A stretch of 64,000 bases of DNA, taken from assembly GCF_003019035.1 (NCBI RefSeq), contig NZ_CP027447.1. One strand, written 5' to 3'. Position 1 is the stretch's first letter; the number at the start of each line of letters is the position of its first letter. Shown here piece after piece: positions 29,256 to 47,051 of the stretch. Position numbers and translations under genes: made by a program. The notes under the pieces are model-generated. The model had not been told where the DNA came from and did not search any database. It was given only the letters and a program-made list of their open reading frames with translations. Source of the stretch: Escherichia coli. GTDB taxonomy: Bacteria > Pseudomonadota > Gammaproteobacteria > Enterobacterales > Enterobacteriaceae.

Positions 29256-29258
29256 AAT

Positions 29259-29891
29259 TTATCCCGCGAATCCTTCCTGCATAGCCTTAATCATCAGCCA
29301 GGAGGAGGTCGCGCCTGGATCCTGATGGCCCACACTGCGAGCGCCGAGATAACTGGCACGTCCTTTTTTCGCCTGCATATTGATGGTGTTATCGACGGCT
29401 GTTGCCGCATCTTGCACCATCGTATTCAGCAGAAGGGAAGGCGACATTCCGGCTTGCAGGTTCTTTTTGGCTTCGTGGAGAACTGGAACCCAGACATCAC
29501 ACAGAGTTTTATCCCTTTGTTCTGCTTTTCCTCGTGCGATAACGCCTGCAATCCCTTCTTCCAGACACGCCAGCCACTCTTCCAGAGTTAATTCTGTTCT
29601 GGCTCCCACTGCCGCAGAAGCGCGAATAAATAATGTGCCGTAAAGAGGACCACTGGCACCGCCAACGCTGGAAAGTAGTTTCATGCCAGTATTTTTAAGA
29701 ATATTGCCAATATGCTGACGTTCAATGTCGGGCAACGTCGCTTTCACTGCACTGAAACCACGATTCATATTGAGGCCGTGGTCGGCATCACCAATATCTC
29801 TGTCAAGTGCGGTTAGAAAATCTTGTTGTTCAGTGAGATGTGCAGCACAACTCTCCAGCCAGGCAATAACATGTTTGTTTTGAATTTTCAT
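29259..29891 (-). CDS. Dihydroxyacetone kinase ADP-binding subunit DhaL-like
   Basis: 210-aa ORF with ...DRDIGDADHGLNMNRGF... DhaL signature; sits between the DhaK-like and DhaM-like genes. Confidence 0.8.
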   Translation of the reverse strand: MKIQNKHVIAWLESCAAHLTEQQDFLTALDRDIGDADHGLNMNRGFSAVKATLPDIERQHIGNILKNTGMKLLSSVGGASGPLYGTLFIRASAAVGARTELTLEEWLACLEEGIAGVIARGKAEQRDKTLCDVWVPVLHEAKKNLQAGMSPSLLLNTMVQDAATAVDNTINMQAKKGRASYLGARSVGHQDPGATSSWLMIKAMQEGFAG

Positions 29892-29903
29892 ATAATGTCC
29901 TTA

Positions 29904-30974
29904 TTAACATCCCCAACGAAGCGCTGGCGTATTGACCGGGGCATCCCAAAGTTGCAAAAACTCTGGGGTACATTTCAGCAGGCTGATGGAAAATCCGGCC
30001 ATATCTAATGATGTACAATAATTACCGACCAACTGGCGGCTAATTTTAATTCCCTGGCGCTGTGCGGCGCACATAAATACCCTGGCTACACCATATAACT
30101 CTGATTCAGGCGTGCTGCCAAGTCCGTTAATTAACACAATATATTCGGCATTTTGATCGAATGACTCATTCATTGATGATGCGTCAATCCATCCCCCCGC
30201 ATGGCGATCCCAATGGCGTAATGTGCGTCGCCAGGGGGTATTATCCAGTAATTGCGCTATCACGCTGTCGATTAAAGTGTTCAGATCTTGCAAAGTGCGG
30301 CGTTCAATGCCGGGTTCACCGTGGATCCCGACACCAAATTCGATTTCATTATCAGCCAGTTCAAATGAGGGTTTTCCCGCGGCGGGAACCGTACAGGCTG
30401 ACAGTGCGATGCCAAAAGAACGGGTGGCATTGTTAACATTTTTGCCAAGTTGCTCGCACTGCCCCAGGTTATATCCCTGAAGTGCAGCCGCACCGACAAT
30501 CTTTTCAACAAAAACTGTACCCGCAACACCGCGACGTCCGGCTGTATACAGGCTATCTTTTACCGCTACATCATCATCAATAATGACGGTCCCAACGGCG
30601 ATGCCTTCTTCGTGTAACATCTCGACTGCCGTTTCGAAATTCAGAATATCGCCTGTGTAATTTTTGATGAAAAACAGAACGCCAGAACCATTATCAACCG
30701 CTTTGGCACATTCGATCATTTGATCTGGCGTGGGCGATGTGAAGATTTCACCAGGACATGCACCGGTTAACATTCCCATACCGACAAAACCTGCATGCAG
30801 TGGTTCATGGCCTGAGCCGCCGCCTGAAATCAGCGCCACTGCATTATCGGTTTGTTTGCACCACACATATCGGGGCGCGTAATTTGCCTGCAGGTGTGGC
30901 CAGGTGGCGATGAGTCCTTCCATTTGTTCTGTGACAACAGAATCAATCTGGTTAATTAATTTCTTCATAGTCAT
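29904..30974 (-). CDS. Dihydroxyacetone kinase substrate-binding subunit DhaK-like
   Basis: 356-aa ORF with ...ISGGGSGHEPLHAGFVGMGMLTGACPGEIFTSP... DhaK signature. Confidence 0.8.
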   Translation of the reverse strand: MTMKKLINQIDSVVTEQMEGLIATWPHLQANYAPRYVWCKQTDNAVALISGGGSGHEPLHAGFVGMGMLTGACPGEIFTSPTPDQMIECAKAVDNGSGVLFFIKNYTGDILNFETAVEMLHEEGIAVGTVIIDDDVAVKDSLYTAGRRGVAGTVFVEKIVGAAALQGYNLGQCEQLGKNVNNATRSFGIALSACTVPAAGKPSFELADNEIEFGVGIHGEPGIERRTLQDLNTLIDSVIAQLLDNTPWRRTLRHWDRHAGGWIDASSMNESFDQNAEYIVLINGLGSTPESELYGVARVFMCAAQRQGIKISRQLVGNYCTSLDMAGFSISLLKCTPEFLQLWDAPVNTPALRWGC

Positions 30975-31293
30975 TCCTGTTCTGATAAATTACGTAAATC
31001 GCGCTAAATATGTTTGCGAGATTAATTCTCCAGCCGCAATAAAACAAATCGCACGATAATAAGATTCATAATGAAACAGTTAATTCATGGTGTTGTTTCA
31101 AAATGAAAAGGGACCAGTATGGATATTGATATATTGTGATTAAGGCATGAAAAGTGTTTTTTATTATCATCTGCAGATGATGTTTTTTACAGCGCGATCA
31201 TAAAACATAATTTTTCGCGAATGAAATGTTTGCCGCCACTGGATGCAACGAGTAGGTTAACAGTGAAGCAAAACAAGTTACGCGAGGAATGAT

Positions 31294-32376
31294 ATGGATA
31301 AGATTATTATAAGTCCGGCTAAATATATCCAGGGAAATGGTTCTCTGGATAATATTGCTACATATGCGGCGAGTTTGGGAACAGAACCATTAATTATTGC
31401 AGATGAATTTGTGACCGGTCTGGTTGGTGACAGAGTAAGCCAGAGCTTTGCAAGAGAAAACATTATTGCGGATCTTGATGTTTTTTGCGGTGAATGCTCG
31501 CAAAATGAAATTTCTCGAATTCGTGAGAAATTTAATCAGCGTAAATATAATGTCGTTATTGGTATTGGCGGCGGTAAAACGTTGGATACGGCAAAAGCCG
31601 TAGCGTATTACCAAAAAATTCCGGTGGTGGTGGTGCCGACAATTGCTTCCACAGATGCGCCAACCAGTTCTCTGGCAGTAATTTACACCCCGGAAGGCCA
31701 GTTTAGCGAATATCTGTTTTTCCCGAAAAACCCGGATATGGTGATTATGGATACTGGCGTCATTTCAGCCGCGCCAGTGCGTCTGCTGGTGGCCGGTATG
31801 GGAGATGCATTGTCAACCTGGTTTGAGGCGAGAGCCAATCAGGCGTCAGGAAAAGCCACAATGGCAGGTGGGGCGTCGACACTGGCGGCACTGGCTATTG
31901 CCCGACTCTGTTATACCACGCTACTGGAAGATGGCTATAAGGCAAAAGTCGCGGTTGAACAAGGTGTTAGCACCAAAGCGGTAGAGAATATTATCGAAGC
32001 TAATACCTATCTTAGCGGCATTGGATTTGAAAGTAGCGGCCTGGCGGCAGCTCATGCCATTCATAACGGCATGACGCAACTGGAGGAATGCCATCATTGC
32101 TACCACGGTGAAAAAGTGGCATTTGGCGTCCTGGTACAGCTCGTACTGGAAAACGCACCACAGGAGGAAATTGAAACCGTACTCAATTTCTGCCATAGCG
32201 TTGGTCTGCCGACAAATCTTCATATGTTAGGCGTGAAGGAAATTAATAAAGATAAATTACGGGCAGTGGCTGAAGCAGCGACTGCTGAAGGGGAAACTAT
32301 CCATAATATGCCATTCGTAGTAACAGCGCAGGACGTTCTTTGCGCAATTTTAACTGCACATCATTTGGGACTTTAA
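31294..32376 (+). CDS. Glycerol dehydrogenase-like iron-containing alcohol dehydrogenase (GldA paralogue)
   Basis: 360-aa ORF, MDKIIISPAKYIQGNGSL... similar to the GldA N-terminus; divergent from the dhaKLM-like operon. Confidence 0.75.
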   Translation: MDKIIISPAKYIQGNGSLDNIATYAASLGTEPLIIADEFVTGLVGDRVSQSFARENIIADLDVFCGECSQNEISRIREKFNQRKYNVVIGIGGGKTLDTAKAVAYYQKIPVVVVPTIASTDAPTSSLAVIYTPEGQFSEYLFFPKNPDMVIMDTGVISAAPVRLLVAGMGDALSTWFEARANQASGKATMAGGASTLAALAIARLCYTTLLEDGYKAKVAVEQGVSTKAVENIIEANTYLSGIGFESSGLAAAHAIHNGMTQLEECHHCYHGEKVAFGVLVQLVLENAPQEEIETVLNFCHSVGLPTNLHMLGVKEINKDKLRAVAEAATAEGETIHNMPFVVTAQDVLCAILTAHHLGL

Positions 32377-32386
32377 AAAAATAATA

Positions 32387-32409
32387 CGGCCTGTGCAAAG
32401 CAGGCCGTT
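32387..32409 (+). terminator. Possible terminator hairpin after the gldA-like gene
   Basis: acggcctg-tgcaaag-caggccgt hairpin followed by a weak T-rich run. Confidence 0.3.
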
Positions 32410-32443
32410 GGTGTCATTTTAAATACTTCATTCGGGAATAAAT

Positions 32444-33712
32444 ATGACCAGTAACTGGAAACGTTGGATCACGCTGGCGTTATGTGGTATTGCCGGAAGT
32501 GCAATATATAAATTGCCTTATTTACGGGAAACCTATTACGACGCGATGCAGCAGGCTACAGGAGCGACTAATGCTGAACTTGGTTTTCTAATGACAGCCT
32601 ATGGTCTGGTGAACTTTTTATTATATCTACCTGGCGGTTGGGCTGCCGATAGATTTTCTGCACGTAAATTAATGACCTTTTCATTAATTTCCACCGGGAT
32701 AAGTGGTTTTTATTATGCGACCTTCCCCTCGTATACTATGATCTGTTTGTTACATGCACTTTGGGCTGTTACAACCGTATTTACGTTTTGGGCCGTGTGT
32801 GTGCGAATTATTCGTACCCTGGGAACCAGCGAAGAACAAGGTCGCTTATACGGTTACTGGTTTCTGGGTAAGGGATTAACCTCCATTGTACTGGGATTTC
32901 TTTCCGTGCCGGTATTTGCCAAATTTGGCGAAGGTGTTGATGGTTTACGGGCGACAATTATTTTTTATTCCGTAGTGACTATTCTGGCCGGTGTTTTAGC
33001 TTGGTTTGTTTGTCAGGATGAAACGCACAGCGAAGATAAAGCGAATTTCCGTCTGGCAGATATGGCATTCGTGCTGAAAATGCCGACGGTTTGGCTGGCA
33101 GGTGTTGTGACCTTTTGTATGTGGTCAATTTATATCGGCTTTGGCATGGTCACGCCGTATCTCACGCAGATCCTGCATATGGGCGAATCGGAAGTGGCAG
33201 TTGCCAGTATTCTTCGCGCCTATGTGTTATTTGCGATGGGGGGATTAATTGGCGGACAACTGGCCGACCGCTGTGCGTCACGCACGCGTTTTATGATTTA
33301 CGCCTTTATCGGCATGATTGTCTTTACTACCGTTTATTTCTTCCTGCCCGGTGAGTCGCGCTACGTCACTATTGCGCTGGCGAATATGGTTGCGTTGGGC
33401 GTGTTTATTTACTCTGCGAATGCCGTGTTCTTCTCAATTATTGATGAGGTTCGGATCCCGGCAAAAGTCACAGGGACTGCTGCGGGTCTGATCTCTTTAC
33501 TGACTTATTTCCCGGAAATCTACTGCTACACGATGGTGGGCAATATGGTCGACCGCAAACCGGGTATTGCCGGTTATCAGGATGTTTTCCTGTTCATGTT
33601 GGTTTGCGCATTCATCGGCCTTATCGCCGCACTGGTCCTCCAGCGTGTGAATCGTAAAAGTAAAAATCAAGTCAATGAAATCACTGAAAACAATGCGGAT
33701 TGCGCATCCTGA
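32444..33712 (+). CDS. MFS-type transporter
   Basis: 422-aa polytopic hydrophobic ORF. Confidence 0.65.
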   Translation: MTSNWKRWITLALCGIAGSAIYKLPYLRETYYDAMQQATGATNAELGFLMTAYGLVNFLLYLPGGWAADRFSARKLMTFSLISTGISGFYYATFPSYTMICLLHALWAVTTVFTFWAVCVRIIRTLGTSEEQGRLYGYWFLGKGLTSIVLGFLSVPVFAKFGEGVDGLRATIIFYSVVTILAGVLAWFVCQDETHSEDKANFRLADMAFVLKMPTVWLAGVVTFCMWSIYIGFGMVTPYLTQILHMGESEVAVASILRAYVLFAMGGLIGGQLADRCASRTRFMIYAFIGMIVFTTVYFFLPGESRYVTIALANMVALGVFIYSANAVFFSIIDEVRIPAKVTGTAAGLISLLTYFPEIYCYTMVGNMVDRKPGIAGYQDVFLFMLVCAFIGLIAALVLQRVNRKSKNQVNEITENNADCAS

Positions 33713-35094
33713 GTCTGACGGGGGAACCAATGGTGGACATGATTAATGAAAGTGCACGGCAAACGCCAGTCATTGCACAAACGGACGTTCTGGTTATCGG
33801 GGGCGGTCCGGCAGGATTAACGGCGGCGATAGCGGCGGGGCGGCTAGGTGCCAGAACCATGATTGTTGAGCGTTACGGCTCACTAGGCGGCGTATTGACG
33901 CAGGTTGGTGTGGAAAGTTTTGCCTGGTATCGCCATCCGGGGACGGAAGATTGTGAAGGGATTTGTCGTGAATATGAAGGCCGCGCGCGAGCATTGGGCT
34001 TCACGCGACCAGAACCTCAGTCAATTAGCGAAGTTATAGATACTGAAGGATTTAAAGTTGTTGCCGATCAGATGATAACGGAAGCTGGCGTTGAGCCGTT
34101 ATATCACTCCTGGGTTGTGGATGTGATCAAGGAAGGGGATACGTTATGCGGTGTTATTGTCGAGAACAAATCAGGACGAGGGGCAATTCTGGCGAAAAGA
34201 ATCGTCGATTGCACGGGGGATGCTGATATTGCTGCTCGTGCAGGCGCGCCCTGGACGAAACGGGGAAAGGACCAACTGATGGGCGTCACCGTGATGTTCA
34301 GTTGCGCAGGTGTCGATGTGGCGCGCTTTAACCGTTTTGTTGCGGAAGAACTTAAGCCGACCTACGCGGATTGGGGAAAAAACTGGACGATTCAAACCAC
34401 GGGCAAAGAAGACCAGATGTTTAGCCCTTATATGGAGGATATTTTTACCCGGGCGCAGCAGGATGGTGTGATTCCAGGCGACGCCCAGGCGATTGCCGGA
34501 ACCTGGTCAACCTTTTCTGAAAGCGGCGAAGCGTTTCAGATGAATATGGTGTACGCCTTTGGTTTTGACTGTACCGATGTCTTCGATTTAACCAAAGCAG
34601 AAATCGCCGGAAGGCAGCAAGCATTATGGGCAATTGACGCTCTACGCCATTATGTTCCGGGCTTTGAAAATGTACGGTTACGCAATTTTGGCGCCACGCT
34701 GGGTACACGTGAATCACGGCTTATTGAGGGGGAAATACGTATTGCTGATGATTACGTCCTTAATCAGGGGCGTTGTTCGGACAGTGTAGGGATTTTCCCG
34801 GAATTTATTGATGGTTCCGGTTATCTCATTTTGCCAACGACCGGGCGTTTCTTTCAGATCCCCTATGGCTGTCTGGTGCCACAAAAAGTGGAGAACCTTT
34901 TGGTCGCCGGTCGCTGTATTTCCGCAGGCGTAGTTGCACATACTTCTATGCGCAACATGATGTGTTGTGCCGTTACCGGTGAGGCCGCAGGCACTGCCGC
35001 CGTGGTTTCGCTACAGCAACATTGCACCGTGCGTCAGGTTGCTATCCCTGATTTGCAAAACACGCTGCAACAGCAGGGCGCACGTCTGGCATAA
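33700..35094 (+). CDS. FAD-dependent oxidoreductase (paralogue 1)
   Basis: N-terminal dinucleotide-binding motif DVLVIGGGPAGLTAAIAA; about 460 aa; paralogous to 44263..45633. Confidence 0.7.
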   Translation: MRILSLTGEPMVDMINESARQTPVIAQTDVLVIGGGPAGLTAAIAAGRLGARTMIVERYGSLGGVLTQVGVESFAWYRHPGTEDCEGICREYEGRARALGFTRPEPQSISEVIDTEGFKVVADQMITEAGVEPLYHSWVVDVIKEGDTLCGVIVENKSGRGAILAKRIVDCTGDADIAARAGAPWTKRGKDQLMGVTVMFSCAGVDVARFNRFVAEELKPTYADWGKNWTIQTTGKEDQMFSPYMEDIFTRAQQDGVIPGDAQAIAGTWSTFSESGEAFQMNMVYAFGFDCTDVFDLTKAEIAGRQQALWAIDALRHYVPGFENVRLRNFGATLGTRESRLIEGEIRIADDYVLNQGRCSDSVGIFPEFIDGSGYLILPTTGRFFQIPYGCLVPQKVENLLVAGRCISAGVVAHTSMRNMMCCAVTGEAAGTAAVVSLQQHCTVRQVAIPDLQNTLQQQGARLA

Positions 35095-35146
35095 CAACAA
35101 GGCGCAGAGAGCTGAAAACCTGTCTGCGCCTTGCAGGAGAAAGACC

Positions 35147-35371
35147 ATGAGGGATGATGACCTTGAGCACTTAAGTGCCAATTACTGGATAACCACAGTT
35201 CTCTGCGGCCTCTTTTTGGGGATATTCCTGTTCATGCTGCAACAGCATCAGTGTGGTTTAGCTCTGTATTGTATTGCGGTACTTTCACTTATTTGCGCCT
35301 TTTTTTCTTTACGCCTTTCCCGACAATTGCAACACATGAAAAAGGAACGGCGAAATATTCGTCCTCATTGA
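35147..35371 (+). CDS. Small putative membrane protein
   Basis: 74 codons from an ATG preceded by aggaga; one or two hydrophobic helices. Weak support. Confidence 0.3.
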   Translation: MRDDDLEHLSANYWITTVLCGLFLGIFLFMLQQHQCGLALYCIAVLSLICAFFSLRLSRQLQHMKKERRNIRPH

Positions 35372-35394
35372 ATGAAAACATTCAGGAGACTGAA

Positions 35395-36991: not shown

Positions 36992-38134
36992 TTAACTCAG
37001 GACTGCATGAAAATACCCTGCCAAATTTTCTCCGAGACGAATTAAATTATTTTCCCCCTGACTCAGCGCGGTGGGTAAATCACAAGGACCATTGACGACG
37101 GAAAAACAGGCTTCGATTCCACACTGGCGTAACTCATTCAAATCAAGTTGATCATCGATATACCCGGCAATTGCGATAACCGGAACGCCCATCATCTGGG
37201 CGATTTTGGCCGCCCCCACAGGTGCTTTGCCATTCAGGCTTTGACGGTCTAATTTACCTTCACCGACAATCGCCAATGCTGCATATTTTAAATGTTGGGT
37301 ATATTGAATCGCTTCCAGCACGAGCGAAATACCCGGTTGTAAGCGAGCATCGAGAAAAGCCATCAAGGCCGCGCCAACGCCGCCAGCCGCCCCAGAACCG
37401 GGTATCGTATCGACTTCTTTACCACAACAACGGTAGATGCAACGGGCATAGTTTTTCATTCCCTGTTCCAGTTGCTCAAGGTTGTCAGCACTGGCCCCTT
37501 TTTGTTGAGCAAAAACCCGAGTCGCGCCGTTATCGCCGGTTAGTGGGTTGGTGACATCACAGGCTGCAATAAATTTCACATTTTTCAATCGTGGATCGAG
37601 GTGCTGTAAGTCAATGTGGTGAATTGCCGCCAGCCCCATCCCATTAACGGAGACTGATTGCCCTTCGGCGTCTGTAAACGATGCGCCAAGTGCCGACATC
37701 AACCCAATACCGCCATCATTTGTAGCACTGCCACCCAGGCATAGAATAACGGTATCAATATTGTGTTCCAGGGCGGCGAGAATAAGTTCGCCAGTGCCAA
37801 ACGACGTCGTATAAAGGGGAGAACGCTGGACAGGAGAAACCAGTTCCAGCCCTGAAGCTTGTGCCAGTTCTATCACTGCGGTGGTTTGGTTGCCTAAAAT
37901 ACCGTATTGCGCATGTATTGATTCTCCAAGCGGTCCGGTGACTTTTTTAGTGTAAAACGTACCGTCAGTCGCATGAATGAGTGTTTCGAGCGTGCCTTCG
38001 CCGCCGTCAGCCACGGGCAAACACACCAGTTGGCTGCCAGGCAGGACCTTGCGCCAGCCGGTTGCCAGCGCTTCGGCGACTTTCCATGCGGGAAGGCATT
38101 CTTTAAAGGAGTCGGGGGAGATAACTATCTTCAT
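36992..38134 (-). CDS. Glycerate kinase (GlxK/GarK family)
   Basis: 380-aa ORF, MKIVISPDSFKECL... typical glycerate kinase N-terminus. Confidence 0.8.
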   Translation of the reverse strand: MKIVISPDSFKECLPAWKVAEALATGWRKVLPGSQLVCLPVADGGEGTLETLIHATDGTFYTKKVTGPLGESIHAQYGILGNQTTAVIELAQASGLELVSPVQRSPLYTTSFGTGELILAALEHNIDTVILCLGGSATNDGGIGLMSALGASFTDAEGQSVSVNGMGLAAIHHIDLQHLDPRLKNVKFIAACDVTNPLTGDNGATRVFAQQKGASADNLEQLEQGMKNYARCIYRCCGKEVDTIPGSGAAGGVGAALMAFLDARLQPGISLVLEAIQYTQHLKYAALAIVGEGKLDRQSLNGKAPVGAAKIAQMMGVPVIAIAGYIDDQLDLNELRQCGIEACFSVVNGPCDLPTALSQGENNLIRLGENLAGYFHAVLS

Positions 38135-38208
38135 AGCAGGTCTCTCAAAATAGGGGAATGGGGCAGGGCAACGAGTGAACGAAGGGAACCGGTGGTTCCC
38201 TTAATTCA

Positions 38209-39096
38209 TTATTTACGGATAGTGAAATTGGCTTGTGTTTCAAGCGCCCGAATTAGCGCAGAATGATCCCACTCTTTACCACCAAGCGCGGCGCAGGCGC
38301 TAAATAATTGTTGCGTCATAGCCGTGTTAGGAAGCGGGGTATTCAACAGGCGAGCATTCTCCAGTGCCAGATTCAGATCTTTTTGATGCAGGCTAATTCG
38401 AAAACCAGGGGCGAATGTCCCTTTGATCATCCGTTCGCCATGAACTTCCAATACACGAGAGGAAGCAAAACCCCCCATCAGAGCTTCACGTACGCGGGCG
38501 GGATCGGCACCTGATTTACTGGCAAAAAGCAGGGCTTCAGCCACCGCTTCAATATTCAGTGCAACAATAATTTGGTTAGCGACTTTGCACGTTTGACCAT
38601 CACCGATGTTACCGACCAGAGTGATATTTTTACCCATCAATTCCAGAATCGGTTTGATCTGTAAATAAACCTCTTCACATCCGCCAACCATAATGGAAAG
38701 CGTCCCGGCTTTCGCGCCAACTTCACCGCCAGAGACGGGCGCATCGATATATTCCGCGCCTCCCGCGATAATACGTTGTGCAAATGCTTTGGTGGCAACC
38801 GGGGAAATTGAACTCATATCAATGACAATTTTCCCGTGGCTTAAACCGTGTATTACGCCATAGTTGGGATGAAAAAGAACATCCTCAACATGTGGGGTAT
38901 CAGGGAGCATGGTGATGATGACCTCACACTCCTGCGCGACTTCACGCGGTGTAGAGCAAACAATGCCACGTTCACCAATAAGCTCTTGCGGTGCAGGTTC
39001 AAAATGCGCTGAAAAATAAAGAGTATGTCCGGCTTGTTGTAAATTATAAGCCATCGGCTTACCCATTATGCCGGTGCCGATAAATCCAATATTCAT
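38209..39096 (-). CDS. Tartronate semialdehyde reductase-like (GlxR/GarR family)
   Basis: 295-aa ORF, MNIGFIGTGIMGKPMAYNL... NAD-binding motif. Confidence 0.75.
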   Translation of the reverse strand: MNIGFIGTGIMGKPMAYNLQQAGHTLYFSAHFEPAPQELIGERGIVCSTPREVAQECEVIITMLPDTPHVEDVLFHPNYGVIHGLSHGKIVIDMSSISPVATKAFAQRIIAGGAEYIDAPVSGGEVGAKAGTLSIMVGGCEEVYLQIKPILELMGKNITLVGNIGDGQTCKVANQIIVALNIEAVAEALLFASKSGADPARVREALMGGFASSRVLEVHGERMIKGTFAPGFRISLHQKDLNLALENARLLNTPLPNTAMTQQLFSACAALGGKEWDHSALIRALETQANFTIRK

Positions 39097-39113
39097 GATA
39101 AATACCTCAGGGA

Positions 39114-39896
39114 TTAAAATTGAGTCTCGTTTTTTAGCCAGCGTAGACTTTCAGTCGTTGTCGTAGATGGAATATATTCGCAACCAATCCATCCCTGATA
39201 ACCAATCTGGTCTATATAATTTAACAACCACGGGTAATTAATTTCTCCCGTCCCTGGTTCATGACGCCCAGGGTTATCGGCTAATTGAATATGTCCAATG
39301 TTATTCAGGTTGTTTTTGATTGTTGTAGCAATATTCCCTTCCATGATTTGCATATGATAAATATCGTATTGGTAGCGCAAATCAGGATGTTTTACATCAT
39401 GAATAATATTGAGAGCTTGTCTGGTATTGTTAACAAAAAAACCGGGAATATCTTTTGTATTAATGGCTTCCAGAACTAACTTTATCCCATGAGAAGCCAA
39501 TTTATCTACCGCATAGCGCAAATTTTCGACCAGTGTTTCATGACATTGTTCATGCGAATAACCACCTGGATGTTTTCCTGCAAGGCAATTAACTTGTGAA
39601 CAATTAAGGGCCAATGCATACTCTATTGCCCTGGAAACGCCCTCCTGAAATTCTTTTGCCCGACCAGGATGACATGCAATACCCCGTTCACCCTCTTGCC
39701 AGTTACCCGCAGGAAGATTAAACAGAACCTGCGTCAGATTATGTTGATGCAGTTGCGAAACTAACTCATCTGCAGAAAAGTCATAGGGGAAAAGATACTC
39801 AACGCCGTGGAATCCTGCGTGACTTGCCTGTGCAAAACGTTCAATAAATGGATACTCGGTAAAGAGCATAGATAAATTTGCTGCAAACTTTGCCAT
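39114..39896 (-). CDS. Hydroxypyruvate isomerase-like (Hyi family)
   Basis: 260-aa ORF; TIM-barrel isomerase-like; positioned between the gcl-like and glxR-like genes as in the K-12 gcl operon. Confidence 0.7.
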   Translation of the reverse strand: MAKFAANLSMLFTEYPFIERFAQASHAGFHGVEYLFPYDFSADELVSQLHQHNLTQVLFNLPAGNWQEGERGIACHPGRAKEFQEGVSRAIEYALALNCSQVNCLAGKHPGGYSHEQCHETLVENLRYAVDKLASHGIKLVLEAINTKDIPGFFVNNTRQALNIIHDVKHPDLRYQYDIYHMQIMEGNIATTIKNNLNNIGHIQLADNPGRHEPGTGEINYPWLLNYIDQIGYQGWIGCEYIPSTTTTESLRWLKNETQF

Positions 39897-39908
39897 AATC
39901 CTGTTTCC

Positions 39909-41648
39909 TTATAAATCGAGAATTTCTTCAAATTCTGTGACTTTATTAATGTCAGGTCCCATAGCGATATTAGTCACGCGTTCAGTAATAATTTCCACAA
40001 CAACAGGTACGTGAAATTCGTCACGCAAACGCTGGGCTTCTTGCAGTGCAGGCGCAATATCCTGTGATGCGAATACGCGAATCGCTTTACATCCTAATCC
40101 TTCAACCACAGCTTTATGATCAACGCCATAACCATTAATTTCTGGAGCATTAATATTTTCAAATGACAGTTGAACGCAATAATCAATATCAAATGCACGT
40201 TGTGATTGACGAATCAAACCAAGATAAGCGTTGTTAAGTAAAATATGGATATACGGAAGATTAAATTGTGCGCCGACGGCTAATTCTTCAATCAAGAATT
40301 GAAAATCGTAATCACCGGATATTGCCACAACGGGAACAGATGGATCAGCTTTTACCGCGCCCAGTGCTGCGGGCATTGTCCAGCCTAGCGGCCCAGCCTG
40401 ACAGGCATTAATCCAGTGGCGTGGGCGGTAAACATGTAAAAATTGGTTTGCGGCGATTTGCGCCAGACCAATTGTCGAAATATAGCGTGTCTCCGGTCCG
40501 AAAACCTTATTCATTTCGTGATACACGCGCTGCGGTTTAATTGGATTGCAGTCAAAGTCTGAACGACGAAGCATTGTGCGTTTACGCTCGGCACATTCGG
40601 CAATCCAGCGACTGCGGTCTTTCAGTTCTCCACGTGACTTCATATCACGGGCGACCTGAATAAATAGCGTTAAGGCGCTTTCAGCATCAGAAACAATGCC
40701 CAGATCCGGCGCAAATATCCGGCCAATTTGTGCAGGTTCGATATCAACATGAATGAATTTGCGGCCTTCGGTGTAGGTCTCAATGGCTCCGGTATGACGG
40801 TTTGCCCAACGGTTACCGATACCAAAAACAAAATCGGAGGCCAGATAACTGGCGTTACCATAGCGATGACCCGCCTGACATCCCATGCGACCAATCATTA
40901 GGGGATGATCATCTGATAATGCGCCCCAACCGCGTAAGGTTTGAATGACGGGAACGCCAGTTAACTCGACAAACTCACGCAACAATTCACTCGCTTCGGC
41001 GTTAATAATGCCACCGCCAGCGATGATGACGGGCTTTTCGGCGCCATTTAGCATTTCTAATGCGCGTACGGCCTGGGCCCGTGTTGCCTGAGGTTGCCAG
41101 GGGGTTAGTGGCTGATAGAGATCGATATCAAACTCAATTTCGGTCATCTGAACATCAAAAGGGAGATCTAAAAGAACCGGGCCAGGGCGGCCTGAACGCA
41201 TTTCCCAGAAGGCTTTCTGGAATATCCCCGGCAACTGACCCGCTTCGAGAATTGTGCGAGCCATTTTGGTTACTGGCGTGGCGATAGCCTCAATATCGAC
41301 GGCCTGGAAATCTTCTTTATGAAGTTTTCCTACGGGAGCTTGACCAGTAATGCAGAGAATAGGAATGGAATCCGCGGAGGCGGAATAAAGCCCCGTAATC
41401 ATATCAGTGCCCGCAGGGCCTGATGTGCCAATACACACGCCAATATTGCCATTCTGACTGCGGGTGTAACCTTCAGCCATATGCGAGGCGCCCTCAACAT
41501 GACGGGCCAGAATATGATCAATACCGCCTGATTTTTTCATCGCGGCATAGAGTGGGTTGATTGCTGCGCCGGGTACACCAAAAGCAACGCTAATGCCTTC
41601 TTTTTTCAGTATTTCTACTGCAGCTTCGATTGCACGCATCCTCGCCAT
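39909..41648 (-). CDS. Glyoxylate carboligase-like ThDP enzyme (Gcl paralogue)
   Basis: 579-aa ORF; N-terminus [64 protein letters not shown] parallels E. coli Gcl, including Val51 where other ThDP enzymes have the catalytic Glu. Confidence 0.75.
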
Positions 41649-42026
41649 ACATTATTTCTCCTGATATTTACGCTGAGTTGAATAGTCAGTCAATTTTGGA
41701 ATTTAACGACGAAATATCTTTGAGGAAATAAAAGGGCAGAACAAATTTCGCTGCACTGTTTCACAGTGAAACAACTCGTATGCCTGTGTTGTTTCAGTTT
41801 GAATAATGATAAATATCAAACGCAAAGATTTCAGATGTTGTTGGCAGTTTTAAAATTTATCTAATGTATTATTCGTTTTTTATTGCTTTAACGGTTATTC
41901 TTTCTAATGTATGTATGGTTACATTGTTGATAAGGTCTGTTTTTGTAATGATCCAGACTAGATATTATTGCGTTTGATCAAGCTTACTGGCATAGCATTC
42001 TGATACAAGTTCTGAAAATGACTTGA

Positions 42027-43976
42027 ATGGATATTATTATAATGAATAAAGAGTCGTATCATAATGATCTAAAAAATAAATGGAAAATGTTTGTTAAGCA
42101 TGGTTGGGTCGCGACAAATTCGACTAATCATGTGATGCTGAGGTCATGGCAAAAATGTCTCAAGCATTGTGACCCTCGCCACTGGAACACGCCTGTCAAA
42201 GCTTCCGGGCAAACATTGCAGACGATTTTTTCTCGTAACGAAGAGTTTATTAGAATTTCACAAAGAGTTGTTGAAGACCATTTCACTCTGGCTGGTGACG
42301 ACCGGTTGGCATTTTTGATCATTGACCCACACGGCTGGGTTCTATCGTTGAATGCAGCAGGCGATTATTCCAGTCAATTGCGAGAGTTAGGAATTGAATC
42401 TGGTATGTCATGGGCCGAAGATGGCATTGGAACCAATGTATATAGTCTTTGTCGGGAAACAAATTTATATACACAACTGGAAGGAGCAGAACATTTTAGT
42501 GAACAGCTACATTGTTATGCGATGAGCGCTGCTCCGGTCATTGATTATTATGGTAATATCCATGGATACATTGTATGTATAATTGAAACTACCGCCGAGC
42601 TTGTTAAATTAAAAACATCATATTCATGTGCAACAGAAATCGCTAATTATATCTATATTGAGAATGAACAAAAGTTAATAAACAAAGTACTTTGCCAGCA
42701 TAATGCTGTGATTGAATGCATGGATGACGGTTTTATTTGTTGGAATAGTCATTCTTTAATTACGATGGTTAATTCTCAAGCACAAACACTACTGAATATT
42801 GATAAAGAAAGTTTAATTGGTCAGAACATCCGAAAAGGATTCGTATTTCCGCCGATTTTGAATGAGGCAATTACACAACGGAACAAACTATCGCAAAAGC
42901 AAATTGTCCTCGAATGCCGTGGCGAATTTATTGAACTTATGGTTACCCTTCGCCCGTTAAGCGATGGTTCGTTTTTACTTTTTCTTCATCCATTAGACAA
43001 AATCAGGAAAATAGCCCAACAGCAAATAAGCACTAATGCAAATTTTACCTTTGACAGTTTACATGCGGCTTCAGGTGGTATGAAGCAGGTATTACTTATC
43101 GCTCGCCGGGCAATTAAATCCATCTCTCCGATTTTGATCAATGGCGAAGAAGGTGTGGGAAAATTGAGTTTGGCGATGGCAATACATAATGAGAGCGAGC
43201 AACGTGATGGGCCATTTATTTCTGTAGATTGTCAGATGCTATCACCAGAAAATATCTTACACGAACTTCTTGGCTCTGATGTTGGCCCTTCGCCATCGAA
43301 ATTTGAACTGGCTCATAATGGCACCTTATATCTGGATAAAGTCGAATATCTATCAGGGGAAGTTCAGAGTGTTTTATTGAAAGTATTGAAAACGGGGCTT
43401 GTTACTCGCTCAGACAGCCATCGTTTGATCCCCGTACGCTTTCGCCTGATTACATGTACCAGTAGTTCGTTACGTGAGTACGTGCAACAAGGGGCTTTTA
43501 GCCGACAGCTATATTATGAGATCTCCATGAATGAAATTGAAATTCCGCCATTGCGCAAACGTCGTGAAGATCTCAAGCAAATGATTGACGATATTATTGA
43601 TAAGTATCAGGAGCGCACTCGAAAAAAAATGACAATCACGCCTGACGCAAATTCAGTTCTGCTTGAGTACCGTTGGCCTGGAAACATCTCCGAGTTCAAA
43701 AATCGAATGGAGAAGGTATTTATTAACTGCAATCGGCTTGTCCTCGGATTAGAGAATATTCCTCTGGATATCCGACAAAATAACAGTAGTGGCGACGATG
43801 ATATCCCTCATCTTACTTCACTGGCAGAATTGGAGATGCAAGCTATTGAGCATACATGTCGTGTCTGCGAATGGAATCTAACTAAAGCAGCTGAAGTATT
43901 AAAAATTGGTCGTACAACATTATGGCGCAAGCTTAAAATCTATAATCTCTATCCAAATGTTGAGCATGCAGATTGA
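42027..43976 (+). CDS. AAA+ bacterial enhancer-binding-protein-like regulator lacking a GAFTGA motif (DhaR/TyrR-like)
   Basis: 649-aa ORF; central AAA+ domain (GEEGVGKL Walker A-like, NGTLYLDKV Walker B-like) and C-terminal Fis-type HTH (...GRTTLWRKLKIY). No GAFTGA is seen in the translation. Confidence 0.65.
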   Translation: MDIIIMNKESYHNDLKNKWKMFVKHGWVATNSTNHVMLRSWQKCLKHCDPRHWNTPVKASGQTLQTIFSRNEEFIRISQRVVEDHFTLAGDDRLAFLIIDPHGWVLSLNAAGDYSSQLRELGIESGMSWAEDGIGTNVYSLCRETNLYTQLEGAEHFSEQLHCYAMSAAPVIDYYGNIHGYIVCIIETTAELVKLKTSYSCATEIANYIYIENEQKLINKVLCQHNAVIECMDDGFICWNSHSLITMVNSQAQTLLNIDKESLIGQNIRKGFVFPPILNEAITQRNKLSQKQIVLECRGEFIELMVTLRPLSDGSFLLFLHPLDKIRKIAQQQISTNANFTFDSLHAASGGMKQVLLIARRAIKSISPILINGEEGVGKLSLAMAIHNESEQRDGPFISVDCQMLSPENILHELLGSDVGPSPSKFELAHNGTLYLDKVEYLSGEVQSVLLKVLKTGLVTRSDSHRLIPVRFRLITCTSSSLREYVQQGAFSRQLYYEISMNEIEIPPLRKRREDLKQMIDDIIDKYQERTRKKMTITPDANSVLLEYRWPGNISEFKNRMEKVFINCNRLVLGLENIPLDIRQNNSSGDDDIPHLTSLAELEMQAIEHTCRVCEWNLTKAAEVLKIGRTTLWRKLKIYNLYPNVEHAD

Positions 43977-44262
43977 TGCTTTTCAAATTGAAAGAATTTT
44001 AATATCGCAGTGTTTCATTTTGATGCAGTGCTTTAATGGTATTGAAATATTGTGATGTGCTCCATAAATGCCAATGTGGTTATTAGCCAGGGAGACGGAA
44101 AATGTGTTTACACTCCTGAAATAATAAAAAATAGGCAAAGAGAGATGATCTCCTTGTATGTCTGTATTAGCATGATGTTGCTTGTTAATAATTAAAAATA
44201 TCAACGCGCTTATATAAGCGCGGGGGATTGTTTTACTCAATTATTGAATACGGAGATAAAGT

Positions 44263-45633
44263 ATGGAATTTTATCTGGAACCCGCTCGTAATATACCTGT
44301 ACTGGCAACCACGGAAGTGTTAGTTGTTGGTGGTGGTCCATCGGGTATTGCCGCAGCAATGAGTGCCGCTCGTGAAGGCGCAGCTACTATGCTGATTGAA
44401 CGTTTCGGTTGTTTTGGCGGAATGATGACAACGGCTGGCGTCGAGTCAATTGCCTGGTGGCGTCATGAAAATACGGTAGAGTCAGGTGGACTGGCACGCG
44501 AAATAGAAGAAACGGCAAAATCAATGGGGGCGTCCAGCCCTGAGCCGCAATCGAATAGTCAGGCTATTAACGCCGAGCGTTTCAAACTGGTTGCGGATGC
44601 AATGCTTGAACAGGCAGGTGTGCGCCGCGTACTACACATTACCGCCGTTGATGTTATTAAGCAGGGCAATAATTTACTCGGCGTAATAACAGAGAGTAAA
44701 TCTGGTCGTCAGGCTATTTTGGCGAATGTCATTATTGACTGTACTGGCGATGCCGATATTGCATGGTTTGCCGGAGCACCATTTATTAAGCGTGAACGTG
44801 AAGACCTGATGTGTATGACAACCGTTTTTAGTTGCGCAAATGTCAATAAAAACGCGTTCATGCAAAATATTAAGAGCACGGAACCTAAATATGGAGACTG
44901 GGGGGCGGATGAAGAAAATAAAAACTGGTCTTATGATGTTCATGAATCTTGTCGCGATATGTTTAGCCCTTATCTGGGTAAAGTCTTTGCGAAAGGAAAG
45001 TCGGCAGGAATTATTCCAAAAGATGTGACGTTAGGCGGTTCCTGGAGTACGGTCACCGAGTATGGTGATGCGAATTACTTGAACGTTGTCAGCATCCCTG
45101 CCGTCGATTGTACGGATGTTTTTGACCTGACGCGTGCAGAAATAGAAGGCCGCAAGCAAGCCATGCAGGCGATTGAAGCGTTGCGTCAATTCCAGCCAGG
45201 ATTTGAACAGGCACAATTAAAAAATTTCGGTATGACGGTGGGAACAAGAGAATCAAGACATATTATTGGGCGAGTCCAGCTTACGGAAAATGATATTTGT
45301 AATGAGGGACGTCATGCGGATTCAATAGGGGTATTCCCTGAGTTTATAGATGGAAATGGTCATCTTAAATTACCTCTTGAAGCGAACTATTTTCAAATCC
45401 CTTATGGCGTAATGATTCCGCAGCAAGTTGAAAACCTGTTGGTTTGCGGACGGGCAATCGATGCAGATAATTTCGCCTATGCGACAATCCGTAATATGGG
45501 GTGTTGTATTGTCACTGGAGAAGGTGCAGGGACTGCCGCTGCTATTGCCATTAAAAATAACACTACCGTTTCACAGGTAGATATTCAGACGGTACAGGAA
45601 CGCTTACAGCAAAATGGCGTAAAAGTCTTTTAA
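44263..45633 (+). CDS. FAD-dependent oxidoreductase (paralogue 2)
   Basis: 456-aa ORF, EVLVVGGGPSGIAAAMSAA...; clearly paralogous to 33700..35094 along the whole length. Confidence 0.7.
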   Translation: MEFYLEPARNIPVLATTEVLVVGGGPSGIAAAMSAAREGAATMLIERFGCFGGMMTTAGVESIAWWRHENTVESGGLAREIEETAKSMGASSPEPQSNSQAINAERFKLVADAMLEQAGVRRVLHITAVDVIKQGNNLLGVITESKSGRQAILANVIIDCTGDADIAWFAGAPFIKREREDLMCMTTVFSCANVNKNAFMQNIKSTEPKYGDWGADEENKNWSYDVHESCRDMFSPYLGKVFAKGKSAGIIPKDVTLGGSWSTVTEYGDANYLNVVSIPAVDCTDVFDLTRAEIEGRKQAMQAIEALRQFQPGFEQAQLKNFGMTVGTRESRHIIGRVQLTENDICNEGRHADSIGVFPEFIDGNGHLKLPLEANYFQIPYGVMIPQQVENLLVCGRAIDADNFAYATIRNMGCCIVTGEGAGTAAAIAIKNNTTVSQVDIQTVQERLQQNGVKVF

Positions 45634-45647
45634 CAGGGAATAAAGTT

Positions 45648-47051
45648 ATGAGAGAAAAACCCAGTTTTTATGTCGCGCTTACACCGATCATTTTTATGAT
45701 GATCGTGTTGGTTGTTGGCATCGGTGTTATGGGCTGGCCTGCCAGCGTCTGTTTATTAATTTCAGCGGCGTTTTCCTGCATTATTGCAATGGCTAAGCTG
45801 AAATATACCTGGGATGAAATCCAGGGGTTTATTATCGATAAGATTTCGGCGGTGATGGCACCGGTACTTATCGTTATTTTCGTTGGCTTTATGGTCGCGA
45901 CATGGAGCTATGCAGGTACACTGCCGATGCTGGTTTATTACGGTATGTTACTGGTTGCGCCCGCATGGCTTTATGCCATAGCGTTTTTTCTGAACGCAAT
46001 ATTGTCCTATGTTTCCGGGGCATCATGGGGATCTGTCGCTTCTATTGGTGTTGCATTAATGGGCATCGGTTCCGGCTTACATGCCGATCTTCCAATTCTG
46101 GCGGCAGCCATTGTTACCGGGGCTTATTTTGGCGACAAACTTTCACCGTTAAGTGATACCACTAACCTGACTTCAGCGGTAACCAAAACTAAACTTTATG
46201 ATCTGATTAAATATCTACTCTGGACGACCATCCCATCAACGATTATTAGCCTGCTGTTTTTTACCTGGCTGGGAATGATTCATACTTCTACGGGCTCTAT
46301 TTCACCAGAAAGCATGCAGATGCTGGTACAGCTCAAAGAGTTATATAAGTTTGGTCTGTTACCGCTACTGCCTATGCTTATTGTTCTGTGCTTTACCTTT
46401 TTGCGTTTGCCTACAGTACCGGCATTATTAAGCAGTGCGTTCGTGGCCGTATTGGTTGGATGGCTGTATCAAGGTTTCCCGCTGGCCGAAGGTATTAAGG
46501 CCACAATGAGTGGTTTCCGTCTGACGATGATCACTGATTCAACGACGCTGTTACCTTCTGTGAAAGAACTGCTTGAACAAGGCGGCCTGAATAATCAGGG
46601 CGGATTCCTGTCATTTATTATCTGCGCCATGATGTTTGCTGGCATCCTGACGGGAACAGGAATGATGGATGTCACATTACAAAGTGCGGCAAACAAAATA
46701 AAAAGTGCTTTTGGCGCTATTCTGGCAAGCGGTGTTTTAGCGATCATCATTAACTTACTTACCGGTTCTGATGGTTTGAATAAGATTGTTATATCTGAAT
46801 TGATGATGAAGAAATTCGAAGATCTTAATTTATCACCGTTAGTCTTAGCCCGAACGCTGGAAGATTTTGGCACCATGAGCGCGCCAATTATTCCGTGGTC
46901 AGCTGCCGGATTGTATATGGCGACAACACTAGGCGTGCCGACGTTTAGTTACTTGCCGTACTGTGTATTCTGTTTCTGCTCGATGATATTTGCGTTGATC
47001 TATGCTTCTACAGGTTTCCGTTTACTGCGCTTCAACGAAGCAAAGGCCTGA
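45648..47051 (+). CDS. Polytopic membrane transporter (NhaC-like family)
   Basis: 467-aa highly hydrophobic ORF immediately downstream of oxidoreductase paralogue 2. Family assignment is tentative. Confidence 0.55.
   Translation: MREKPSFYVALTPIIFMMIVLVVGIGVMGWPASVCLLISAAFSCIIAMAKLKYTWDEIQGFIIDKISAVMAPVLIVIFVGFMVATWSYAGTLPMLVYYGMLLVAPAWLYAIAFFLNAILSYVSGASWGSVASIGVALMGIGSGLHADLPILAAAIVTGAYFGDKLSPLSDTTNLTSAVTKTKLYDLIKYLLWTTIPSTIISLLFFTWLGMIHTSTGSISPESMQMLVQLKELYKFGLLPLLPMLIVLCFTFLRLPTVPALLSSAFVAVLVGWLYQGFPLAEGIKATMSGFRLTMITDSTTLLPSVKELLEQGGLNNQGGFLSFIICAMMFAGILTGTGMMDVTLQSAANKIKSAFGAILASGVLAIIINLLTGSDGLNKIVISELMMKKFEDLNLSPLVLARTLEDFGTMSAPIIPWSAAGLYMATTLGVPTFSYLPYCVFCFCSMIFALIYASTGFRLLRFNEAKA

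Follow-up and report, generated by a model that had tools for sequence, protein, structure and literature searches.

The promoter driven by DhaR (YcgU), the regulator of dhaKLM in Escherichia coli K-12, is a sigma-70 one; the sigma-54 motif is missing from this protein, which DhaL activates and DhaK represses (PMC3162934, PMC10084136). TyrR of E. coli is likewise an AAA+ protein derived from enhancer-binding proteins that has no GAFTGA motif and works with sigma-70. In extraintestinal pathogenic E. coli (ExPEC), on the other hand, the GimA literature describes a 20.3-kb island between yjiD and yjiE whose regulator was named IbeR (PMC2878320, PMC4359115). There, IbeR is presented as an undefined "RpoS-like" regulator of stress and virulence, and one paper calls the control of ibeA by ibeR unknown. 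Our full-text literature search returned nothing relevant that links IbeR to DhaR, dihydroxyacetone or sigma, nor anything on an operator sequence.

The E. coli DNA analysed here (64,000 nucleotides of contig NZ_CP027447.1, assembly GCF_003019035.1; hereafter the window) contains an intact open reading frame of 649 aa at 42027..43976 on the plus strand, namely the one singled out by the initial annotation as an island regulator. Position 42027 is, however, probably only the start of the longest open reading frame, and the ATG at 42042, where RefSeq and the orthologues (aligned MDK/MNK) begin, is probably the real start, giving a protein of 644 aa (MNKES...). The gene is ibeR, already published as encoding the regulator of GimA, the ibeA island of ExPEC. 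In particular, it is the first gene of ibeR-ibeA-ibeT and lies in a cluster of approximately 20.3 kb between yjiD (iraD) and yjiE (hypT), adjoining the fim operon, and by gene order (compared with PMC2878320 and PMC4359115) the same cluster also holds the ptnIPKC, cglDTEC and gcxKRCI operons. While dhaR is found in 5385 of 5426 complete E. coli genomes, ibeR is present in 246, and with few exceptions the GimA-positive strains have the core dhaR in addition to ibeR. Both the ibeR gene and the DhaR-type loss of GAFTGA are already known; the useful addition made here is that three island promoters each carry a candidate operator pair of the DhaR type. The features are listed in Table 1.

Table 1. 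Regulator, motif, candidate operator and neighbouring-gene coordinates in the window
Feature	Position	Strand	Basis
ibeR CDS (RefSeq name dhaR)	42042..43976	+	RefSeq, orthologue starts, family and domain matches
IbeR Walker A GEEGVGKL, residues 373-380 of the 649-aa ORF	43143..43166	+	Alignments
IbeR L1-loop remnant ELLGSDVGPSPSKFE, residues 413-427, GAFTGA deleted	43263..43307	+	7-residue gap versus PspF/NtrC
IbeR degenerate Walker B, D437-K438 in place of catalytic DE	43335..43340	+	Alignments
IbeR Fis-type HTH (HTH_8), residues 598-638	43818..43940	+	Pfam, E 2.6e-11
Candidate operator pair, divergent gcl/ibeR spacer: TGTTTCACAGTGAAACA (0 mismatches) and TGTTTCAGTTTGAATAA (2 mismatches)	41757..41806	.	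Motif scan
Candidate operator pair, divergent dhaK/gldA spacer: AGATTCATAATGAAACA and TGTTTCAAAATGAAAAG	31062..31110	.	Motif scan
Weaker candidate pair directly after the ibeR stop codon: CTTTTCAAATTGAAAGA and TGTTTCATTTTGATGCA	43979..44027	.	Motif scan
Long DhaM (annotated ptsP; ptnI/pptE in the GimA literature)	26874..29255	-	EIIA-Man, HPr and complete Enzyme I fusion
Island dhaL, predicted IbeR co-activator in ADP form	29259..29891	-	RefSeq; 54% identical to K-12 DhaL
Island dhaK, predicted IbeR antagonist	29904..30968	-	RefSeq; 59% identical to K-12 DhaK
gldA, MFS transporter and FAD oxidoreductase (GimA2), predicted IbeR-controlled operon, divergent from dhaK	31294..35094	+	RefSeq
gcl-hyi-glxR-glxK (GimA3), predicted IbeR-controlled operon, divergent from ibeR	36992..41648	-	ORF list, RefSeq
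ibeA (FAD oxidoreductase, invasion determinant) and ibeT (NhaC-type antiporter), 3' of ibeR	44263..47051	+	ORF list, RefSeq

Judged by its sequence, IbeR is a DhaR-family transcription factor. Namely, Pfam places a weak GAF match at residues 75-185, a PAS domain at 227-322, Sigma54_activat at 348-504 (E 5.6e-31) and AAA_lid_14 at 510-589, ahead of the helix-turn-helix listed in Table 1. These domains bear out the AAA+ core and C-terminal Fis-type HTH that the initial annotation had read from the sequence, and together with the missing GAFTGA they reproduce the GAF-PAS-AAA+-HTH architecture of K-12 DhaR. Both proteins fall into the same NCBIfam equivalog, NF008485, on which IbeR scores 985.8 bits against a cutoff of 551 over profile positions 8-643 of 643, and K-12 DhaR 1020.6 bits. 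What is more, the sensing domain of IbeR (residues 36-334) matches the DhaR receiver domain in the PDB (4LRX, one of the structures 4LRX/4LRY/4LRZ) at E 5e-40. The recognition helices are nearly identical (IGRTTLWRKLK in IbeR, IGRTTLWRKMK in K-12 DhaR), and the linkage is also that of the family, with dhaK, dhaL and long dhaM at 26874-30968 of the same island and the equivalent genes, dhaM in the same fused form beside dhaL and dhaK, linked in Citrobacter, Vibrio and Photobacterium. On the other hand, IbeR is only 33% identical to K-12 DhaR over 614 aa, is encoded in an accessory island, and is paired with a long DhaM bearing a complete Enzyme I. DhaR of the Vibrionaceae is closer (41-47% identity), and its clusters (dhaR / dhaK-dhaL-long dhaM / gldA) share with GimA the long EIIA-HPr-EI DhaM, the divergent gldA and an operator pair upstream of dhaK, although the Vibrio and Photobacterium loci that we examined have no gcl operon, no ibeA and no ibeT. 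As for TyrR, its family model NF008085 gives IbeR 144.8 bits against a cutoff of 576. The parallel with DhaR and TyrR proposed by the initial annotation holds unequally: the likeness to DhaR is true homology, while that to TyrR is weaker, because IbeR and DhaR have lost the Walker B DE, the arginine fingers and the sensor II Arg, which are retained in TyrR (the fingers as FREDLYYRL). The N-terminal region and the HTH of TyrR differ as well.

The AAA+ core, lid and Fis-type HTH of IbeR are homologous to those of PspF and NtrC, and yet the parts needed to contact sigma-54 and the catalytic residues are missing. This can be seen in a MAFFT alignment of IbeR with E. coli PspF, NtrC, TyrR and DhaR, which includes the comparison suggested at the outset and shows the GAFTGA deletion, and in a second comparison with 22 other DhaR relatives. 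Both strings quoted in the initial annotation are present in the open reading frame, GEEGVGKL at residues 373-380 and HELLGSDVGPSPSKFELAHNG at residues 412-432. Where PspF and NtrC read ELFGHE(A/K)GAFTGA in the L1 region, IbeR reads ELLGSDVGP-------SPSKFE, a deletion of 7 residues (3 in K-12 DhaR), and GAFTGA is absent from 22 of the 22 other relatives. A regular-expression scan over the entire protein found no shifted copy of the motif. The GAF string within QQGAFSRQLYY (residues 489-491), considered as such a copy, was rejected, as it aligns with the arginine-finger G.FR.DL segment and not with the L1 loop. Further along, Walker B is LYLDKV in IbeR, versus LFLDE(L/I) in PspF/NtrC and LFLEKI in K-12 DhaR; both arginine fingers are absent (FRxDLxxR has become FSRQLYYE), and so is the sensor II Arg (WPGN(I/V)R has become WPGNIS). 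The same three changes occur in 21, 20 and 20 of the 22 other relatives, respectively. Walker A, by contrast, is intact. It does read GEEGVGK, versus GE(R/S)GTGK in PspF and NtrC, but the form called atypical at first is not peculiar to IbeR, being the signature of the DhaR family (20 of the 22 other relatives; K-12 DhaR has it). In other words, the initial annotation was right about the missing motif, yet the feature is an ordinary one, because the whole DhaR family, which descends from sigma-54 enhancer-binding proteins, has lost the contact loop together with the residues for ATP hydrolysis.

Could IbeR nevertheless be an ordinary sigma-54 activator whose contact loop has diverged? The Sigma54_activat match speaks for this, as does the label "sigma-54-dependent" that some databases attach to relatives; against it stand the shortened loop, the missing catalytic residues (Walker B Glu, the two arginine fingers and the sensor II Arg), the documented sigma-70 dependence of the homologue DhaR (PMC3162934, PMC10084136), and the promoters themselves. 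Namely, we scored -24/-12 elements on a 12-point scale that did not demand GC at -12, because the pspA positive control, which reached 11/12, has GT there. The island intergenic regions yielded no credible element above background: the best sites scored 8-9/12, none of them pairing GG with GC at 9/12 or higher, and the K-12 dhaK-dhaR spacer, which is sigma-70-dependent, also gives matches of 8/12, i.e. background level. The best such site in the island (10/12 at 28775-28790) was rejected, since it lies inside the long dhaM coding sequence and is itself at background level, as the 64-kb window has 5 such sites. The sigma-54 reading is thus essentially refuted, and the sigma54-independence proposed in the initial annotation is supported by the loss of the motif, by the island spacers and by what is documented for DhaR. 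By analogy with the latter, we infer that IbeR works with sigma-70 RNA polymerase. It should be noted that a generic sigma-70 scan gave 29 sites, versus 33.2 in shuffled sequence, and therefore no excess, and that an Rfam scan of the island gave no matches. For annotation in general, a match to the Pfam "Sigma-54 interaction domain" alone does not make a sigma-54 activator.

If not at -24/-12 promoters, where would IbeR act? Three island promoter regions (dhaK/gldA, gcl/ibeR and ibeR-ibeA) each carry a tandem pair of palindromes of the form TGTTTCA-N3-TGAAACA (in degenerate form, YGTTTCA-N3-YGRAACR), with starts 32-33 bp apart, so that such pairs precede the predicted target genes. With at most 3 mismatches per site and a spacing of 32-33 bp, the window contains these three pairs, as against 0 in 300 composition-preserving simulations. 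The gcl/ibeR pair (starts 33 bp apart) is centred 117 and 150 bp upstream of the gcl ATG and is kept in two relative loci (L006 and L007), whereas the dhaK/gldA pair (32 bp) is centred 102 and 134 bp upstream of the dhaK ATG, and its type of arrangement recurs in five (L007, L008, L010, L011 and L012). The ibeA pair (32 bp), located 244-276 bp upstream of the ibeA ATG, is weak, with 3 and 2 mismatches, and is kept at the equivalent place in [Enterobacter] lignolyticus (L006, 11939 and 11971). The BCCT promoter at 35095-35394 has no operator pair, even if 4 mismatches are allowed. Outside GimA, the K-12 dhaK-dhaR spacer has the same palindrome pair upstream of its dhaK, and pairs occur in six to seven other DhaR loci, from [Enterobacter] lignolyticus, Citrobacter, Vibrio, Serratia, Photobacterium, Klebsiella and Pantoea, upstream of dhaK, gcl and BCCT genes that adjoin DhaR-family genes; across K-12, the window and the other loci the spacing is 31-33 bp. 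On the strength of this phylogenetic footprinting, the palindrome would be the operator of the DhaR family. Unlike in K-12, the predicted operators of IbeR also precede a glyoxylate carboligase operon and ibeA; in three relative loci (L006, L007 and L009) a gcl operon adjoins an IbeR-clade regulator, with an operator pair.

We consider it likely that IbeR is a sigma-70 activator/repressor of the DhaR type, acting on tandem operators and switched by the DhaK and DhaL of its own island. In such a mechanism, the Fis-type HTH would bind the tandem palindromes, three helical turns apart, of the two divergent spacers (dhaK/gldA and gcl/ibeR) and of the region shortly before ibeA, while the GAF-PAS domain would contact island DhaK (off) and DhaL-ADP (on), thereby setting activity. 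The availability of dihydroxyacetone and the flux of phosphoryl groups from the PTS through the long DhaM would therefore switch the island. The initial annotation had imagined a DhaR-like sensor of a pathway intermediate; the DhaR-like part stands, but DhaR itself reads the state of DhaK/DhaL and not an intermediate (PMC10084136). Deletion of ibeR raised ibeA expression (PMC4359115); IbeR may repress ibeA from its site instead of activating it, or the deletion construct itself may be responsible. Observations that count against the proposed mechanism include the weakness of the ibeA pair and its distance from the start codon, the Serratia locus without dhaK, the published "RpoS-like" phenotypes, and the generic sigma-70 scan with no excess of sites.

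The second of these observations bears on the question of the signal. One can argue that IbeR binds DNA as DhaR does and has a sigma-70 output, but that the signal read by its GAF/PAS region is a small molecule bound directly (glyoxylate, glycerate, DHA or the substrate of the IbeA-type oxidoreductases, for instance) and not DhaK/DhaL. Indeed, the predicted regulon exceeds dihydroxyacetone metabolism, as it includes the gcl operon and ibeA-ibeT. Moreover, the sensing domains of IbeR and K-12 DhaR share only about 30% identity, and in Serratia microhaemolytica, where the regulator is accompanied by gcl, BCCT and FAD oxidoreductase genes, the only related gene nearby encodes Dak2 (DhaL-like), with no dhaK. 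However, the DhaR receiver domain to which this sensing domain is homologous was crystallised with DhaK and DhaL, and the window, like 4 of 4 loci of the IbeR/Vibrio clade with enough flanking sequence, has a Dak2 (DhaL) gene within 10 kb. On balance, direct sensing appears rather improbable. [quoted passage not shown] It is true that ibeR mutants show lower stress and serum resistance and lower invasion, with altered transcripts of katE, sodC, osmC, ompA, aatA, iucD and luxS (PMC4359115), but these are differences in qRT-PCR and possibly indirect metabolic effects. The architecture, furthermore, is that of a specific DNA-binding factor of the DhaR type and not of a sigma factor, and the best operator matches cluster at the island promoters: in a single-site scan of the 64 kb, 6 of the 11 matches form the three island pairs.

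For ExPEC research the gain is modest. That said, regarding IbeR as a DhaR-type factor controlled by trigger enzymes gives concrete and cheaply testable predictions on binding sites, on the signal and on cross-talk with core DhaR, and thus on how a virulence-associated metabolic island is turned on. Since the recognition helices are nearly identical, the operator half-sites are identical and the two regulators occur together in almost all GimA-positive strains, the DhaK/DhaL trigger-enzyme circuits of core DhaR and IbeR may cross-regulate each other, an idea that we put forward tentatively and hold to be possible rather than probable. If it were true, GimA would couple glyoxylate catabolism and the invasion determinant ibeA to the sensing of dihydroxyacetone and the PTS, and the "RpoS-like" effects of ibeR mutation on stress and virulence would lie downstream of this metabolic switch.

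The absence of a GAFTGA motif, for which the island regulator was singled out in the initial annotation, is a known trait of the DhaR family, since both the loss of the motif and the use of a sigma-70 promoter have already been published for E. coli DhaR (PMC3162934 and PMC10084136, with reference to Bächler et al. 2005), and ibeR itself is an already named and annotated gene. What is new here is a layout of paired operators conserved at the promoters of GimA, the ibeA island. As to the identity of the locus, the SMS-3-5 island reads iraD (yjiD); leftward, a ptsP-like gene, dhaL and dhaK; rightward, genes for a glycerol dehydrogenase, an MFS transporter and an FAD oxidoreductase; a BCCT transporter gene; leftward, genes for glycerate kinase and tartronate semialdehyde reductase, hyi and gcl; rightward, ibeR, ibeA and nhaC; and finally hypT (yjiE). 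The ORFs of the window are the same, with the fim operon upstream, while GimA is described as a 20.3 kb element in the yjiD-yjiE interval beside fim, with operons ptnIPKC, cglDTEC, gcxKRCI and ibeRAT (PMC2878320). Because gene order and fim neighbour match, the island is GimA and the sole long ORF at the regulator position, which holds both strings reported initially, is ibeR; the downstream ATG, five codons in and used by RefSeq and the orthologues, is probably its true start. The ibeR DNA was matched in 246 of 5426 complete E. coli genomes (at least 99% identity, and chromosomal, in 245), annotated dhaR in each. The G+C content of the 2-kb bin containing ibeR is 39.4%, as against 44-48% in the adjoining island bins; the published value for the whole island is 46.2% (PMC2878320).

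Coordinates of the genes, protein domains and sites discussed (window positions unless a residue range or another locus is given)
Feature	Position	Detail
ibeR ORF	42027-43976 (+)	649 aa
ibeR alternative start	ATG 42042	MNKES..., 644 aa
IbeR GAF, weak	residues 75-185	Pfam
IbeR PAS	residues 227-322	Pfam
IbeR Sigma54_activat	residues 348-504	Pfam, E 5.6e-31
IbeR GEEGVGKL	residues 373-380	
IbeR HELLGSDVGPSPSKFELAHNG	residues 412-432	
IbeR AAA_lid_14	residues 510-589	Pfam
IbeR HTH_8 (Fis type)	residues 598-638	Pfam, E 2.6e-11
GimA 'PtsP'	26874-29255 (-)	793 aa
FAD oxidoreductase, GimA2 operon	33730-35094	
IbeA	44263-45633	
G+C bin with ibeR	42001-44000	
Pair, dhaK/gldA spacer	starts 31062, 31094	32 bp
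Pair, gcl/ibeR spacer	starts 41757, 41790	33 bp
Pair directly 3' of ibeR stop	starts 43979, 44011	32 bp
Pair, K-12 dhaK-dhaR spacer	starts 4956, 4987	31 bp
Pair before Serratia microhaemolytica BCCT gene	L009 10105-10152	
BCCT promoter	35095-35394	
Perfect hairpin	44204-44222	CGCGCTTATATAAGCGCG
Antisense ORF	43983-44240 (-)	85 aa, TTG start
NtrC SELEX peak, K-12 dhaK-dhaR spacer	L002 4840-5066	

Sequence comparison places IbeR among DhaR proteins. In particular, it scores 985.8 bits on the DhaR equivalog NF008485 (NCBIfam; cutoff 551) over nearly the entire profile, K-12 DhaR itself scoring 1020.6 bits; over its N-terminal 300 residues it matches the DhaR receiver domain known from crystal structures (4LRX/4LRY/4LRZ; E 5e-40); and the models of true sigma-54 activators all score far under their own cutoffs against it. 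IbeR and K-12 DhaR share 33% identity across 614 residues. The nearest relatives in a large protein database, an [Enterobacter] lignolyticus protein among them, are 76-81% identical, followed by a protein of a Citrobacter species (62%). Since the Vibrio, Photobacterium and Salinivibrio DhaR proteins reach 41-47% and the core enterobacterial clade 32-33%, IbeR is a DhaR paralogue of a lineage nearer the Vibrionaceae type.

The claimed AAA+ core and C-terminal Fis-type HTH were recovered as Pfam domains. We aligned IbeR with E. coli PspF and NtrC (sigma-54 activators), TyrR and DhaR, and, in a second alignment, with these references and 22 DhaR-family proteins. GAFTGA was absent from every DhaR-family protein aligned, and a regular-expression search of IbeR for a displaced copy was empty. 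The Walker A, called atypical initially, does differ from that of PspF and NtrC, but is a family signature, found in 20/22 of the other DhaR-family proteins; of these 22, 21 have the Walker B change, 20 the arginine-finger change and 20 the sensor II change, the exceptions being a Klebsiella sequence with a disrupted frame and two distantly related metagenomic proteins. The suggested parallel with TyrR is therefore only partial, as TyrR retains all three elements that are changed in IbeR and DhaR.

AAA+ motifs of sigma-54 activators, IbeR and K-12 DhaR
Motif	PspF/NtrC	IbeR	K-12 DhaR
L1 loop	ELFGHE(A/K)GAFTGA	ELLGSDVGP-------SPSK (7-residue deletion)	EFIGGDRTD---NENGRLS
Walker A	GE(R/S)GTGK	GEEGVGK	GEEGVGK
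Walker B	LFLDE(L/I)	LYLDKV	LFLEKI
Arginine-finger segment	FR(A/E)DL..RL	FSRQLYYE	FSRQLYYA
Sensor II	WPGN(I/V)R	WPGNIS	WPGNDF

Sigma-54 independence also agrees with the promoters. Every island position was scored against TGGCACG-N4-TTGCW. When GG and GC were required, all sites with at least 9/12 matches lay within coding sequences and none in the island spacers; when they were not, the spacers peaked at 8-9/12, none with GG and GC together. As a control, the pspA promoter scored 11/12, and the sigma-70-dependent K-12 dhaK-dhaR spacer 8/12, the background level of the scan. Spacer scores stay near this background and no site combines GG with GC, so that nothing points to sigma-54 promoters in GimA; together with the loss of GAFTGA and the DhaR sigma-70 literature, this supports the initial proposal. 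A generic sigma-70 scan yielded 29 sites, about as many as shuffled sequence (33.2). A genomic SELEX peak for NtrC lies in this same K-12 spacer (PMC8743547); odd at a sigma-70 promoter, it may reflect related HTH specificities among regulators derived from enhancer-binding proteins.

Reading of the spacers revealed a perfect palindrome, TGTTTCA-CAG-TGAAACA, in gcl/ibeR, with a counterpart, TGTTTCA-TAG-TGAAACA, in the K-12 dhaK-dhaR spacer. Allowing up to 3 mismatches, the window holds 11 such sites, 6 of which make up three pairs, and no such pair arose in 300 simulated runs with local dinucleotide composition kept. Pairs are also found at gcl/ibeR and ibeR-ibeA in [Enterobacter] lignolyticus, at gldA/dhaK and gcl/regulator in Citrobacter sp., upstream of dhaK in Vibrio and Photobacterium, upstream of gcl and of a BCCT gene in Serratia microhaemolytica, and at dhaK/gldA in Klebsiella and Pantoea. 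At dhaK and gcl the proximal centre lies 93-125 bp and the distal one 126-156 bp upstream of the start codon; two pairs depart from this (133-134 and 166-167 bp), those at Serratia gcl and Photobacterium dhaK. We infer that the operator of the DhaR family is this motif, with the consensus YGTTTCA-WWW-YGRAACR (30 sites), and that IbeR, whose recognition helix (IGRTTLWRKLK) is nearly identical to that of DhaR (IGRTTLWRKMK), would bind it at three GimA promoters. The pairs imply a sigma-70-dependent IbeR regulon under DhaK/DhaL control, including gcl and possibly ibeA. The Serratia BCCT pair lies downstream of an IbeR-clade regulator gene; as the window BCCT promoter was searched and holds no pair, BCCT regulon membership differs between lineages.

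In K-12, DhaL turns DhaR on and DhaK turns it off, according to the nucleotide state of DhaL (PMC10084136). Most simply, IbeR would read its cognate GimA DhaK and DhaL, which are 59% and 54% identical to their K-12 counterparts. The GimA gene annotated ptsP encodes not the nitrogen-PTS Enzyme I but a long DhaM, in which EIIA-Man and HPr are joined to a complete Enzyme I; this fusion also occurs in Vibrio, Photobacterium and Citrobacter dha clusters, with regulators of the IbeR/Vibrio clade, and could free the island DHA kinase from the general PTS proteins. Core dhaR is present in 5385/5426 E. coli genomes; GimA-positive strains therefore have two DhaR-type regulators that apparently share one DNA specificity, which makes cross-talk plausible. 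IbeA and the GimA2 FAD oxidoreductase are paralogues (51% identity over 452 aa), so that this enzyme type is present twice on the island, each gene adjoined by a transporter gene.

By phenotype, IbeR has been described as an 'RpoS-like' regulator on which stress resistance, invasion and virulence depend (PMC4359115). Its domain architecture gives no support to a sigma-factor-like role, and the wide effects of its loss could be indirect. Control of ibeA by ibeR is described as not known in a review (PMC7988836); Wang et al. saw the ibeA transcript rise in a delta-ibeR mutant (PMC4359115), which is compatible either with negative action of IbeR at the pair before ibeA (244-276 bp upstream) or with an effect of the construct. 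Between this pair and the ibeA start stands a G+C-rich hairpin, terminator-like on the - strand in our scan, which may separate ibeR and ibeA transcription or be another protein-binding palindrome. An antisense ORF that fills the spacer, overlapping pair and hairpin, carries no RefSeq annotation and is probably not a gene. Finally, strain XDL (NZ_CP043033.1), one of the 246 genomes, is a natural ibeR knockout, an IS903B insertion cutting the match in two.
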